64,000 nt of DNA from Aquabacterium fontiphilum (GCF_009909205.1 NZ_JAAAPN010000005.1:84847-148846); one strand, 5' to 3'. Shown: positions 27,755 through 48,005, counted from the first letter of the stretch. Program-made: numbers and translations. The notes: generated by a model from the sequence alone, not told the origin.

Positions 27755-27871
27755 GGGGTTTGACGCCGCTCCTCTCATGGTTGAGATTCAACCGTTATAG
27801 AACGAGCCGAACCTCAGCGAGGGCCTGAGCAGGGGTGACATGGTTCAAGCTGCACGACCTGCATCACACGG

Positions 27872-29767
27872 TCATGCACTTAGCTGCAGAACCCCTCTTT
27901 GCCGGAATGCAGCCAGTCTTGCTGCATATGGATCCAGCGCATCCTCTGGGGCGCCCAAAGGTATCTTCACGACCTCGGCAAAGCGCGCTGGTGTGACCTG
28001 CCCATGTGTCAGGAGTTCGTCCACCAAAGCCAGCAAGACTCCACGATGCATGTCGAGCAACTTTGTTGCCCGATCGTGTTCAGCCTGCAACAGCGCTTCT
28101 ATCGGCGCATTGCTCTCATCCACATCGGTGCAGAAGTTGTCTTCGCTGTTGACGGAGATATCGGTGCGGCAGATGCGCGAGCCGTGTCCGAGGTGGCGCA
28201 GCATGCGGGCTGCCGTTTCGGTGGCTTTGCGCAGATCGCTCTCGGCACCGCTTGAGCTCAACTCGGGCCCGAAGACCAGCAATTCTGCGGCTCGGCCGGC
28301 CAGGCTGGTGCAGATCGAGTCGAGCAGGTTGCGGCGTGACCACACCTTGCGAGATGTATAGGCGTTGTAGCCGCCTTCGAAGCTAGCCACATGGATCTTG
28401 ATTTCTTGCGGGGCACGGCCAAAAAGCAAAGCGTGGATCAGTCCGTGTCCTGCCTCATGCACGGCGAGCAGCGCGCGGAAGTCTGGATTGTTGCGCTGGC
28501 GCAGCCGGTTGATCTCGAAGGGGGCCGCAATGGCTTGAGACTGTCCACGCCAATGGACGATCAGGCTTCGACTATCGGCCGTGAGGCCGACGGTATCGCC
28601 GGCAGCGGCACCACGTTCGAGCGCCCACAGCGTGGCCTTTGCGAGGCCAGTGCCAAGGATGGCGTGCAGTGAAGAGAACAACGGCCGGGTACCTTGGGCA
28701 GGAAAAACCGCATTGGCGTAGATCTGCTCGTGCACGCTGGCGTCCACATTGAAATGCAGACTGCAGCGCGTGGCCGTTTCAAGCGCGTAACGGGTGCAGA
28801 CCTGTTTGATCAACTGCTCATACGCGCTGCGGCTGAGTGACGGGTAGACCACATGCTCGTTTCCCAGGCGAGCAACCTGTTCCGGCTTGAACCGTTGGTT
28901 GAGCGCCTGCTTGACGTCAATGACGCTCAGCTTGCTGGTCAAGCCATGGAAGGTATCGGCATCGCTGTCGCAGTCGTCCACGCTGGTGGCGATGTCCTCG
29001 TACATCTCGTCGAGGTTGCCGCAGACGAAGATCAGCAGTCGGCTGTAGTCGGTCTCCCAACGCTGCTGTCCTGTTTCGCGGAAGGCGCGAAGCCGCTCCT
29101 GGATCTGGTCGGGTGCCCACGCCATGATCTCCATGAGCGACTCATCAAGCTTGAGGTTGCGCCGCAGTTCCTGGGCTTCCCAACTGTTTAGTTTGAAGCG
29201 CCGCTTGGCGTCATCGGCCTCGGCCCGCTCGGCATCGTAGGCCGCCTCTGCGATGGAGGACTCGATATCGCCCAGCAAGGAAAGGGCCGGTGGCAGGCGG
29301 CCATCGGACAGCAAGGCCCAGACATCCTGGTAGCGTTCCACGCGCACTTCCGAGCGCTTGCTGTCGATGGTGCGGAAGCGCTGGAACTCATCGAGTGCCA
29401 GGATGCCGGGCTCGCCCTCTCGCACGCCGGATTGAGCCAGCATGCCCGAGATGCTCTGTGCGCTGCGGCAGCCCGCGCCATTGGAAAAGCCGTCCATCTG
29501 CACTTCGACGAAGCGGTCGTAGAAGCCGAGCAACTGCGCCAGACGGCGCACCAGCTGGGTCTTGCCGGTTCCCGTGAGGCCCCAGAGGCAGACGATGACG
29601 GGCCGCGTCACGAGTTCGGGCAGCACGTACCACGCGCGCACCGAGTCAATCACACGGTCGATCACGGCATCAATGCCGAACAGTTCGCTTTTGAGTTGGG
29701 CTGCAATCTCTTGCAGCGCTTGGCTTCGCTGCGCGAGCCGGTCTCGCAATGCTGGGGTGTCATTCAT
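27872..29767 (-). CDS. Soluble FtsH-like protein: N-terminal P-loop ATPase fused to C-terminal M41-type zinc metallopeptidase, no TM anchor
   Basis: Walker A GLTGTGKTQL, Walker B ILALDEF. C-terminal HEAGH (…LLAVHEAGHGLIHALLFG) and …ESDLRKATETAARML… resembling the FtsH peptidase domain. AAAGGA RBS ahead of Met46 (MNDTPALRDRL…). 631 aa. Confidence 0.7.
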   Translation of the reverse strand: MNDTPALRDRLAQRSQALQEIAAQLKSELFGIDAVIDRVIDSVRAWYVLPELVTRPVIVCLWGLTGTGKTQLVRRLAQLLGFYDRFVEVQMDGFSNGAGCRSAQSISGMLAQSGVREGEPGILALDEFQRFRTIDSKRSEVRVERYQDVWALLSDGRLPPALSLLGDIESSIAEAAYDAERAEADDAKRRFKLNSWEAQELRRNLKLDESLMEIMAWAPDQIQERLRAFRETGQQRWETDYSRLLIFVCGNLDEMYEDIATSVDDCDSDADTFHGLTSKLSVIDVKQALNQRFKPEQVARLGNEHVVYPSLSRSAYEQLIKQVCTRYALETATRCSLHFNVDASVHEQIYANAVFPAQGTRPLFSSLHAILGTGLAKATLWALERGAAAGDTVGLTADSRSLIVHWRGQSQAIAAPFEINRLRQRNNPDFRALLAVHEAGHGLIHALLFGRAPQEIKIHVASFEGGYNAYTSRKVWSRRNLLDSICTSLAGRAAELLVFGPELSSSGAESDLRKATETAARMLRHLGHGSRICRTDISVNSEDNFCTDVDESNAPIEALLQAEHDRATKLLDMHRGVLLALVDELLTHGQVTPARFAEVVKIPLGAPEDALDPYAARLAAFRQRGVLQLSA

Positions 29768-29987
29768 CCCAATCCTTTCGTCGCACCAGCGCTTGCAGCG
29801 CCACGCGGTCGGCGCGGCGTTGTGCGCCGCGGCTTTGGATATGCTGACCTGCGCCTCGCATGCCACGCTCGCCAAGTGCGCGCGCCACAGGGTCACGCGC
29901 ACCAGGGCCCGCTTCGAGCACCAGCGTCATCGGTTGTTTCATGCGGCGCAGGGCCTTGATCCGGCCCTCTTGAAGGGCGCGGGAACG

Positions 29988-46494: not shown

Positions 46495-47678
46495 GCGCAT
46501 CATCGAATGACGACGACCGCCTGCGTCGCTGGCGAATGGTGCTGGGCGGCGAAGCTGAGCAGAGCTGCGGATCATTGACCGGTGCTATGGCCGAAATGGA
46601 CCAGGGCTTGGCTGCGCTTTATGAAGCGCAAGGGCCAGGTGGCTTGCAGTCCAGGGACAGGCGTGGCGGTCGGGGCGGTTCAGCCCCCAGTGTTGCGCGC
46701 TGGCTGGGTGACATCCGCAAGTACTTTCCCAGTTCTGTCGTACAGGTCATGCAGCGCGACGCATTGGAGCGGTTGAACATGCGCGACATGCTGCTGCAGC
46801 CCGAAATGCTCGAACGCGTGCAGCCTGATGTGCACCTGGTCGCCAACCTGATGGCCTTGTCCCGCGTGATCCCCGAGGGCACGAAAGAAACCGCCCGCAT
46901 GGTGGTGCGTCGGGTGGTGGATGACCTGATGAAACGGCTGGAAGACCCCATGCGATCGGCTGTCAGTGGCGCATTGGACCGCAGCCAGCGCAACCGCCGG
47001 CCACGTCATGCCGAGATCGATTGGCAACGCACCATACGGGCCAATTTGAAGCACTGGCAGCCCGACTACCAAACCGTCGTGCCAGAGACCTTGATCGGCT
47101 ATGGCCGCAAAGCCCGCAAGCCGCAACGCGAGGTCGTTTTGTGCATCGACCAAAGCGGCTCCATGGCCAATTCGGTGGTGTATGCCAGTATCTTCGGTGC
47201 CGTCCTGGCCTCCTTGCCTGCGGTAGCCACCAAGCTGGTCGTGTTCGATACGGCGGTGGTTGATCTCACCGAGCAGCTTCATGATCCGGTCGATGTCTTG
47301 TTTGGTGTTCAGCTGGGTGGCGGCACGGACATCAATGGTGCGGTGGGCTACTGTCAATCGCTGATACGGGAACCACGCAACACGATCTTCGTGCTGATAT
47401 CGGACCTGTACGAAGGCGGCGTCGAAGCCAACCTCTTGCGTCGTGCCATCGAACTGGTCGACAGCGGCGTGCAGTTCATCACCCTGTTGGCCTTGAGCGA
47501 TGAAGGCGCACCTGCCTACGACCATGCCTTGGCAGCCAAGTTGGCGGCATTGGGCGTGCCTTCATTTGCTTGCACGCCCGATGCCTTTCCGGGCTTGATG
47601 GCTGCGGCCATTCGGCGCGATGACATATCGGCGTGGGTGGCCGCTCAGGGGCTTGTGACCCGTGCAAAGGTTCGATGA
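46491..47678 (+). CDS. von Willebrand factor type A (VWA) domain protein with MIDAS motif
   Basis: …REVVLCIDQSGSMANSV… (DxSxS MIDAS) and …IFVLISDLYEGG…; 395 aa. Canonical partner of MoxR ATPases. Confidence 0.8.
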   Translation: MSASSNDDDRLRRWRMVLGGEAEQSCGSLTGAMAEMDQGLAALYEAQGPGGLQSRDRRGGRGGSAPSVARWLGDIRKYFPSSVVQVMQRDALERLNMRDMLLQPEMLERVQPDVHLVANLMALSRVIPEGTKETARMVVRRVVDDLMKRLEDPMRSAVSGALDRSQRNRRPRHAEIDWQRTIRANLKHWQPDYQTVVPETLIGYGRKARKPQREVVLCIDQSGSMANSVVYASIFGAVLASLPAVATKLVVFDTAVVDLTEQLHDPVDVLFGVQLGGGTDINGAVGYCQSLIREPRNTIFVLISDLYEGGVEANLLRRAIELVDSGVQFITLLALSDEGAPAYDHALAAKLAALGVPSFACTPDAFPGLMAAAIRRDDISAWVAAQGLVTRAKVR

Positions 47679-48005
47679 GCGCGAAGTTGTTTAGGACTTT
47701 GGCGTTTAGGTAGGACCGCCTGAAGCTTCGCAAGTGCTTGGTGCACAACGCGCATCGTTCACGACTTTGTTCGGTGACAACAGAGCGGGACATGGCGCCG
47801 AGGTTTGGGATTCAAGAGCCACGGATTGCCTCAGGGAGCACGCTTTCGAGCGACTCTTGGGCGGCGCGCCGTCGTTGCTTTCGGCATGAGTCAAGCGACT
47901 GCTGTGCTGCGTGAGGGGTATGGTCGTCCAGGATCTTGAATGGATCCGGGATGGTATCTTCAAACGGGCGAGAGAATCGTTAACTCAAACGTTCGGTAAA
48001 TGGAA

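Follow-up and report, generated by a model that had tools for sequence, protein, structure and literature searches.

In a 64-kb stretch of Aquabacterium fontiphilum DNA (GCF_009909205.1, NZ_JAAAPN010000005.1:84847-148846; hereafter, the window), the gene glmS is followed by about 20 kb of lower-GC DNA. We interpret the segment 27,755-47,783 as what remains of a non-autonomous, partly deleted Tn7-like transposon located in the attTn7 site downstream of glmS, namely its left end and its cargo, the latter being a response cassette for translation and RNA damage. We assign this interpretation a probability of roughly 0.8. It draws on the composition of the block, a transposon left end at its distal border, an orthologous element which retains both ends, and the recurrent linkage of the same genes in related loci. 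The analysis covered this one window and about 170 loci of relatives (L-numbers), among them 80 glmS loci with 10-kb flanks.

A compositionally distinct block downstream of glmS

The GC content is 0.675 in the left flank (1-27,754), 0.605 in the island (27,755-47,783) and 0.684 in the right flank (48,006-64,000). When computed over 500-bp windows, mean GC is 0.678 ± 0.023 in the flanks (n = 86) versus 0.605 ± 0.030 in the island (n = 40; Mann-Whitney p = 4e-18). GC content at third codon positions (GC3) displays the same pattern, with 0.85 (0.79-0.90) for 25 flank genes versus 0.73 (0.68-0.83) for 14 island genes (p = 6e-7). GC falls directly after the glmS stop codon (27,754) and recovers at the YdiJ-like gene (48,006), past an AT-rich spacer (47,679-48,005; GC 0.557). 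All three measures bear out the lower-GC accessory block of about 20 kb proposed by the original prediction, and the deviation is highly significant. Its end, placed at 47,990, is to be corrected: the element stops at the transposon terminus (47,783), while GC recovers at 48,006.

The glmS gene itself (25,886-27,754, plus strand; SIS and GATase domains; GC3 0.87) is host DNA outside the island and carries the attTn7 target at its 3′ end. Its product is 87-89% identical at the amino acid level to GlmS of Aquabacterium metagenome-assembled genomes, and the source of the window belongs to the Burkholderiales and is Aquabacterium-like. The closest relatives keep glmU and other genes upstream of glmS. 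Downstream, neither the island genes nor YdiJ/PoxB occur within 10 kb in any of the related glmS loci (0/80), so that the region after glmS is a break-point throughout the family, and relatives with the gene order of the window, which would have spoken for an ancestral region, were not found. An empty site, with glmS joined to YdiJ, was also absent from the 10 kb downstream of these 80 glmS genes. The right flank, on the YdiJ/PoxB side, is lineage-specific.

A Tn7-like left end and related elements with both ends

The distal border of the block is formed by a Tn7-like left end (47,685-47,783, minus strand), consisting of an inner TnsB-type site (47,688-47,703), a terminal site (47,756-47,771) and the terminus ...GACAACA at 47,783. 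The 12-mer core of the sites, AAAGTCGTAAAC, has just two matches at ≤1 mismatch in the 64 kb, at 47,689 and 47,757, both on the minus strand, 68 nt apart and within the AT-rich spacer; the chance expectation for a match to the 16-mer end motif is 0.02. Read on the plus strand, the spacer sequence ends with CGTTCACGACTTTGTTCGGTGACAACA at 47,783, and this point is the left end, oriented as expected for an element with its right end toward glmS. L087, L096 and L014 have left ends that can be aligned with this one and share its spacer motif, AAGTGCTTG.TGCAC. Past the terminus, the host intergenic DNA (47,784-48,005; GC 0.568), which extends to the stop codon of the YdiJ-like gene, has no similarity to L085, L096 or L087. 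The locus L085 is 97.2% identical to positions 42,767-47,701 of the window (4.9 kb); beyond this it has one hybrid end site and then a flank of another kind, with an FMN_bind_2 gene, and homology is therefore lost at the end terminus.

The glmS loci of relatives provide the counterpart of this end. In many of them, 22-25 nt after the glmS stop codon, the sequence opens with TGT or TAT and continues with AATAAAGTCGTAAACA-type direct repeats at spacings of 20 and 68 nt, the layout of a Tn7-like right end that occupies attTn7. A strict spaced-repeat test, demanding a 12-mer repeated at that spacing, was positive for 12 of 73 loci versus 8 of 355 control segments. In L019, genes for TnsD and TniQ come directly after the repeats, the TnsD being 31% identical to the annotated TnsD of a Pseudomonas plasmid; a Pfam scan of 74 open reading frames (ORFs) downstream of glmS in relatives detected TnsD/TniQ in this locus only. 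Most relatives retain only the end and cargo (YgjP and HsdR in L002, an MCP in L004), and decay of these elements is therefore common. A BLAST search of plasmids with the end as a query yielded a match to a Polaromonas plasmid copy interrupted by IS1182. Two variants at attTn7 may be mentioned: L022 has a duplicated right end, the copies being 228 nt apart (11,850-12,178), and L069 harbors a 1.3-kb mini-element with inverted ends (2,939-4,203).

An orthologous element with both ends is present at glmS of L096, a metagenome contig (JGI Ga0209066_10001912). The order there is glmS, 25 nt, right end, an ORF for 565 amino acids (ORF565), the genes for FtsH-like, Kelch and SPFH proteins, tRNA-Thr, HNH, five tRNAs, repressor, rtcA-rlaP-rtcB, rtcR, left end (two sites 68 nt apart) and an unrelated flank. 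The right end, 25 nt past the glmS stop codon, starts with TTGTTGGCAATTTAAGTCGTAAACA. L096 is collinear with positions 27,924-40,145 of the window at 85-94% nucleotide identity, and the 3′ ends of the two glmS genes are 87.6% identical. Relative to L096, the window lacks 2,027 nt (L096 15,748-17,774) comprising the right end and ORF565, has an additional five-gene module, SWIM-DUF5691-MoxR-DUF5682-VWA (hereafter, SWIM..VWA), between rtcR and the left end, and carries an extra 67-nt insertion in tRNA-Asp. In place of the missing ~2 kb stands a left junction of 117 nt (27,755-27,871) without a Tn7-like right end; homology of the window with L089 also ends at 27,871. The inverted pair of ends is seen only in L096 and L069; the window has the left end alone, with its two sites and ...ACA terminus. 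ORF565 of L096 (15,922-17,619, minus strand) adjoins the right end, in the position expected of tns genes, and matches nothing in Pfam or PHROG.

Other loci retain different portions of the same assembly. L087 and L088 contain rtcA-rlaP-rtcB, rtcR, PhyH, SWIM..VWA, a reverse transcriptase gene, creBCD and then the same two-site left end, which in L087 directly adjoins a right end from another Tn7-like family (19,700-19,735) in a tandem arrangement. In L099, a sister-family right end lies 24 nt after glmS, with a module of HNH, RtcB and tRNA array 6 kb inside. L089 is a deletion derivative in another neighborhood, where rtcA is followed by a 144-nt HNH remnant and then by the FtsH-like gene. 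Taken together, the related loci show a family of Tn7-like-bounded RNA-repair islands that are mosaic in content. The island of the window is itself a mosaic, its SWIM..VWA block being missing from the L096 orthologue. As for the reverse transcriptase (RVT_1) gene of L087 (13,557-14,804, minus strand), it directly follows the VWA gene and could be part of a group II intron or retron; no such gene occurs in the window.

The divergence between the window and L096 is similar for the element and for glmS (about 85-88% nucleotide identity). The insertion is therefore probably old and shared by descent with a sister lineage. The same similarity, along with the conservation of many cargo proteins across the family to the degree seen for core genes, would also suit an ancestral, vertically inherited region owing its low GC to function (RNA genes, expression needs) rather than to foreign origin. 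However, the block follows glmS in none of the 80 relatives and is bounded by transposon ends, the same cargo has different flanks in L085, L087, L089 and L096, and GC3 is uniformly low in all 14 island genes irrespective of their function. Vertical inheritance of the region is thus already largely refuted, and we regard it as very improbable. By contrast, an old or decayed Tn7-like insertion at the glmS hotspot, one of the options in the original prediction, is supported by the left end, the attTn7 ends of relatives, L096 and L085, and is favored by the evidence over the other option, a non-Tn7 mechanism.

Missing parts and alternative origins of the block

Several observations weigh against the Tn7-like interpretation. 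The segment 27,755-27,904 contains neither an end motif at ≤3 mismatches nor spaced repeats corresponding to a right end. Profile searches detected no Tns domain in any island ORF, and the absence of TnsABCDE, integrase and transposase noted earlier holds for all island ORFs tested. As to remnants of tns genes, a tblastn search of the island with the glmS-downstream ORFs of relatives, including TnsD and TniQ of L019, returned no match. The terminus is followed by GAGCG, and no matching pentamer, as would be expected for a 5-bp target-site duplication, occurs at the expected place after glmS; such a duplication is not recognizable in L096 either. An intact autonomous member, combining tnsABC with these ends, was not found among the 170 loci, and for this reason the predicted role of the motif as a TnsB binding site rests on its position, its architecture and the adjoining TnsD in one locus. 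Furthermore, the FtsH-like, DUF5682 and HNH proteins are 70-94% identical across many genera of the family and are also encountered in other contexts (L082, L089-L092); therefore, parts of the block may have entered by recombination and not with the transposon. Finally, the linkage of genes among related elements may reflect common ancestry and not common function.

Some of these points suit a patchwork of independent events at a recombination hotspot (homologous recombination of incoming DNA, nested insertions and deletions), in which the left end would belong to the oldest or outermost piece only and most genes would never have been transposon cargo. The absence of SWIM..VWA from the L096 orthologue fits such a history, and so does the comparison with L087, in which this module is 74% identical to that of the window but the rtc part is 89% identical. 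In L089 the genes from rtcR to the FtsH-like one reside in a quite different neighborhood with deletion scars; L081, L094 and L097 have SPFH and then a second rtcB in place of the Kelch and FtsH-like genes; and the FtsH-like, HNH and DUF5682 genes are each found alone elsewhere. On the other hand, L096 encloses the whole block from rtcR to the FtsH-like gene between a right and a left end at glmS, and L085 and L087 have SWIM..VWA directly inside the same left end, so that both halves of the island are seen as bounded cargo. We consider the patchwork unlikely; it differs from the transposon reading in degree and is compatible with it.

An island of the integrase type, an integrative and conjugative element (ICE) or a prophage remnant targeting the 3′ end of glmS, or else homing by the HNH endonuclease, would account for other features of the block. 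Arrays of tRNA genes with HNH genes are known from phages and ICEs (PMC8421152, PMC4758250), the island has a phage-type repressor, and the 9-nt sequence GTGAGGGGT is found in direct orientation both at the glmS stop codon (27,751) and at 47,911. Yet, by our estimate, chance would yield about 0.6 such 9-mer matches between the two junction regions, and the sequence before 47,911 does not resemble glmS. A search for flanking direct repeats, as recommended in the original prediction, gave only this 9-mer and a 10-mer, both at chance level, and neither was accepted as an att site. Moreover, no integrase, recombinase, structural or conjugation gene is present in the island, PADLOC matched no defense system, and homing by the HNH endonuclease could move the array but leaves the bounded 20-kb block unexplained. 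We see hardly any likelihood in this group of explanations.

The RNA-repair operon

The RNA-repair operon lies on the minus strand and consists of rtcB (37,104-38,324; RtcB, 1e-129), rlaP (36,219-37,055; RlaP, 1e-99) and rtcA (35,186-36,250; RTC, 9e-78). Divergent from it is rtcR (38,533-40,143, plus strand), coding for a sigma-54 activator with an RtcR (CARF-like) sensor domain (2e-83) and a Sigma54_activat domain (1e-47). About 50 nt upstream of rtcB there is a putative sigma-54 promoter of the pattern TGGCAC-N5-TTGC (38,375-38,389, minus strand; exact match TGGCACACCCATTGC); the pattern by itself is no rarer than chance across the window, and its weight lies in its position. On the basis of domain matches and gene layout, rtcR, the predicted promoter and rtcB-rlaP-rtcA make up a canonical Pseudomonas-type Rtc system. 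The order rtcB-rlaP-rtcA is that of Pseudomonas, for which the activity of RlaP has been described (PMC12776372), and activation of RtcR by damaged tRNAs has been shown in Salmonella (PMC7790460).

The tRNA array, the HNH gene and the repressor

Both ARAGORN and Rfam detect five tRNA genes in the island. The genes for tRNA-Arg(ACG), tRNA-Pro(UGG), tRNA-His(GUG) and tRNA-Glu(UUC) form a remnant array (33,690-34,065, minus strand). Next to it is a tRNA-Asp(GUC) pseudogene (34,075-34,217, minus strand), called by neither program and recognized by alignment to the intact tRNA-Asp of L081 and L096, in which the T-loop is split by the 67-nt insertion (34,096-34,162). The insert is GC-rich, has hairpin potential and is absent from L081 and L096; no second copy occurs in the window or in the ~170 loci, so that a repeat element seems unlikely. 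The scores of tRNA-His, tRNA-Glu and tRNA-Thr are 44.8, 43.4 and 51.1 bits compared to 63.1, 54.6 and 58.8 bits in the closest relative, L081. The defects in tRNA genes suspected from the sequence are thus real, both as lowered scores and as the disruption of tRNA-Asp(GUC).

The array of the window reads Asp (disrupted), Arg, Pro, His, Glu, then HNH and then "Thr", and the same tRNA order is found within the arrays of 20-23 genes in L110, L120, L131, L136 and L141. With its five intact tRNA genes, a disrupted one and a single tRNA-like cloverleaf in 1.4 kb, the window stays below the definition of a tRNA array as at least 20 tRNA genes at a density of at least two per kb (Tran et al. 2016, PMC4758250). 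Since its order and sequence are homologous to the 20-23-gene arrays, the array of the window is a shrunken remnant. In L081 (~1,900-2,440), and also in L094 and L097, two small ORFs that are absent from the window reside inside the array; in L081 one of them, having a SEC-C-like CPCGS motif, lies between tRNA-His and tRNA-Glu, and the other, of 50 amino acids, precedes HNH.

At the 3′ end of the array lies the gene for an HNH endonuclease of 191 amino acids (33,079-33,654, minus strand; HNH, HNH_5 and HNH_4 domains; PHROG HNH endonuclease). Its family comprises more than 1,300 homologues at 70-96% identity. In metagenomic loci of this family, tRNA genes on the same strand lie upstream of HNH in 65 of 69 cases, HNH being at the 3′ end of arrays of up to 22-23 genes with conserved gene order. 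An Rtc gene is present in 36 of the 54 HNH loci with enough flank; in the window, HNH ends the array and rtcB is 3 kb away. A comparable arrangement is known from cyanobacteria: there an HNH gene and rtcB are linked to tRNA L-arrays and share their regulation (PMC8421152). Readings of the HNH gene and its neighboring RNA as a group I intron, an IscB/omega-RNA system or a retron were rejected: there is no Rfam intron match at E ≤ 10 and no RuvC or reverse transcriptase domain.

Upstream of the array, a leader region (34,390-34,771, minus strand) includes a sigma-70-like promoter (−35 at 34,771-34,766, −10 at 34,748-34,743) and a terminator-like hairpin (~34,390-34,425), from which its function as an array leader is predicted. 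The region is 74-77% conserved at the nucleotide level in L081, L094 and L097. Between the promoter and the hairpin there is an ORF for 68 amino acids (34,453-34,659, minus strand) with a ribosome-binding site, which might act as a leader or attenuator; a weak Thr_leader match is at chance level (E = 0.17). Divergent from the array promoter is a gene for a phage-type transcriptional repressor (34,831-35,199, plus strand; phrog_12107, 5e-11), a homologue of which is located upstream of the array in 29 of 80 HNH loci.

A structured RNA with tRNA-like modules

Between HNH and SPFH lies a sequence of ~290 nt (32,766-33,059, minus strand) which, according to an alignment of 31 distinct loci, encodes a structured RNA. 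It is composed of a 5′ multi-helix domain of 150 nt, a tRNA-like module devoid of a D-arm (~32,877-32,935), a full cloverleaf and a GNRA hairpin. The cloverleaf is the sequence called as tRNA-Thr(UGU) (32,801-32,876); its "anticodon" differs among loci (Thr UGU, Met CAU, Ile GAU, Gly UCC), and the D-arm-less module ends with ACCA in many of them. Among 56 predicted pairs, 25 display compensatory changes across the 31 loci, and 97.5% of alignment cells are paired, values that none of 500 shuffles reach; slid controls give 32-47%. The RNA is more conserved than the adjoining genes. It is followed by the SPFH gene in all 25 loci with enough sequence, and usually then by rtcB. The "tRNA-like remnants" of the original prediction thus need to be reinterpreted: a tRNA-like piece does lie upstream of tRNA-Thr, but it is part of a conserved, covarying structured RNA and not debris.

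No Rfam family matches this RNA at the gathering score. Scores for YrlA are sub-threshold, 20 bits for the window copy (E = 0.4) and 29 bits for that of L131 (E = 3e-4), the gathering score being 69. The window contains no TROVE or Ro60 gene. In L083 (Eleftheria terrae, CP106951; 5,437-12,190), ten tRNAs, RtcB and HNH are followed by a Ro60-like vWA protein (PF25045). This junction of the HNH/tRNA-array module with a Ro orthologue fits a Y-RNA-like role of the associated RNAs. The structured RNA, which is without an Rfam family, is the most novel part of the island. Tentatively, and without holding it to be probable, we suggest that it could represent a new tRNA-mimicking class of RNA for RtcB-type repair, either a decoy or sensor of tRNA-cleaving toxins or a Y-RNA-like scaffold. 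It would then be one component, next to the tRNA array, the SPFH and FtsH-like proteins and the MoxR/VWA module, of a mobile "translation rescue" cassette that Tn7-like elements would have spread among Burkholderiales.

Other cargo genes

The gene nearest to glmS encodes a soluble FtsH-like AAA+/M41 metalloprotease of ~631 amino acids (27,872-29,767, minus strand; longest ORF to 29,902; Peptidase_M41 and AAA domains). It matches FtsH structures in PDB at 4e-14, has the Walker A motif GLTGTGKT and the zinc motif HEAGH, lacks a transmembrane segment, and is 83-94% identical across Sphaerotilaceae. Next to it lie the genes for a Kelch-repeat protein (30,276-31,409, minus strand; Kelch_KLHDC2, 3e-10, under the curated cut-off), located in the same place in L096 with 90% amino acid identity, and for an SPFH/Band-7 (slipin-like) protein devoid of a transmembrane segment (31,431-32,570, minus strand; Band_7, 4e-28; weak similarity to HflK/C).

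The five-gene module at the other side of the island (40,218-47,678, plus strand) consists, according to Pfam, of SWIM (40,218-41,549), DUF5691 (41,546-43,093), a MoxR-type AAA_5 ATPase (43,090-44,181), DUF5682 (44,194-46,494) and VWA_CoxE (46,491-47,678). All the related loci in which it was seen (L086, L087, L088, L126 and L136) have rtc or HNH genes beside it, HNH being joined directly to SWIM..VWA in L136 and L126. Sequence searches found no PDB relative for the module, and a predicted structural model of DUF5682 (pLDDT 79) had only generic alpha-solenoid matches. Literature searches found no papers on DUF5682 or DUF5691. PADLOC gave generic HNH and AAA matches only, and none for Kelch, SPFH, SWIM, DUF5691, DUF5682 or VWA.

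The tRNAs, HNH nuclease, RNA-repair operon and two modules listed in the original prediction were all recovered by ARAGORN, Rfam and Pfam. The tRNAs and the modules without known function, first seen as an atypical mix, are indeed there, but the mix is not random: they recur together as an RNA-repair/tRNA-array cassette, and from this recurrence the cargo looks coherent rather than miscellaneous.

Proposed history and significance

The order of events and the activities that we propose are as follows. By analogy with the mechanism of Tn7, the ancestral element would have been inserted by a TnsD-type pathway ~23-25 nt past the glmS stop codon, with its right end toward glmS, and would then have been retained in the lineage. 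The tns genes would have been lost first. Later, in the genome of the window, a deletion presumably took the right end and ~2 kb beside it, leaving an element that would now be fixed and immobile on its own. In the cargo, RtcR probably senses damaged tRNA ends and turns on the sigma-54 promoter of rtcB-rlaP-rtcA, upon which broken RNA would be healed and sealed. The repressor-controlled promoter would drive the reduced array of spare tRNAs ending in the HNH gene. The SWIM-DUF5691-MoxR-DUF5682-VWA module, presumably inserted into the interval from rtcR to the left end, probably plays an accessory part in this response.

The mechanism of insertion is ordinary, and an RNA-repair and tRNA cargo is of a kind already described in cyanobacteria. 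The island shows that a transposase-less glmS island is diagnosable from one surviving transposon end and comparison with metagenome contigs. It also extends the linkage of tRNA array, HNH and RtcB from cyanobacteria to Burkholderiales, on Tn7-like elements, where the cassette is physically clustered with SPFH, the FtsH-like protease and the MoxR/VWA module. The result is a compact, testable set of genes for bacterial survival of attack on tRNAs and ribosomes by toxins, phage defense nucleases and antibiotics. Of the parts of the island, the structured RNA and the MoxR/VWA module deserve further study.

Comparison with known systems

Like Tn7 and Tn7-like elements at attTn7, the island lies directly downstream of glmS, with the left end distal, an ...ACA terminus, repeated transposase-type sites of ~20 nt and variable cargo, and it has relatives with tandem or decayed elements (L022, L069, L087). 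It differs from them in being without tnsABCD/E, right end and target-site duplication, and its end repeats are a sequence family specific to Burkholderiales with no tie to a characterized TnsB.

The RtcR/sigma-54 rtcBA operons (PMC7790460, PMC12776372) share with the window the divergent arrangement of rtcR and rtcB-rlaP-rtcA, all four proteins being full-length Pfam matches. Unlike them, the operon of the window is inside a mobile island with a tRNA array, SPFH, an FtsH-like protease and a MoxR/VWA module, and has no Ro (Rsr) gene. The Y RNA-like RNAs YrlA and YrlB, encoded beside rsr and rtcBA, resemble the RNA of the island in being structured, in having tRNA-like modules and in their location just upstream of an rtcB-containing operon, whereas the RNA of the window, at ~290 nt, has an extra 150-nt multi-helix domain and two tRNA-like units, and there is no Ro protein in the window.

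As in tRNA L-arrays and array units (PMC8421152, PMC4758250), a same-strand array beside HNH and rtcB has a dedicated upstream repressor and a horizontal origin, and the tRNAs are supernumerary and partly degenerate. Those arrays have 20-43 genes, compared to five intact genes, one disrupted gene and one cloverleaf here; moreover, the host of the window is a betaproteobacterium, HNH is at the 3′ end of the array and not upstream, and the array is inside a Tn7-like element. The cargo can also be compared with the translational-stress regulon of TrcR in Anabaena, which includes the trn operon and the genes for RtcB, HNH, a slipin, an AAA ATPase and a DUF1194 protein (Table 1 of PMC10272220), the last three recalling the SPFH protein, the FtsH-like protease and the VWA protein of the window. 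The list of functions matches (tRNA array, RtcB, HNH, slipin/SPFH, AAA ATPase and vWA-like DUF1194, under one repressor in Anabaena), the AAA and vWA proteins being compared at the level of function. In Anabaena the genes are scattered and share a common operator, whereas in the window they are physically clustered.

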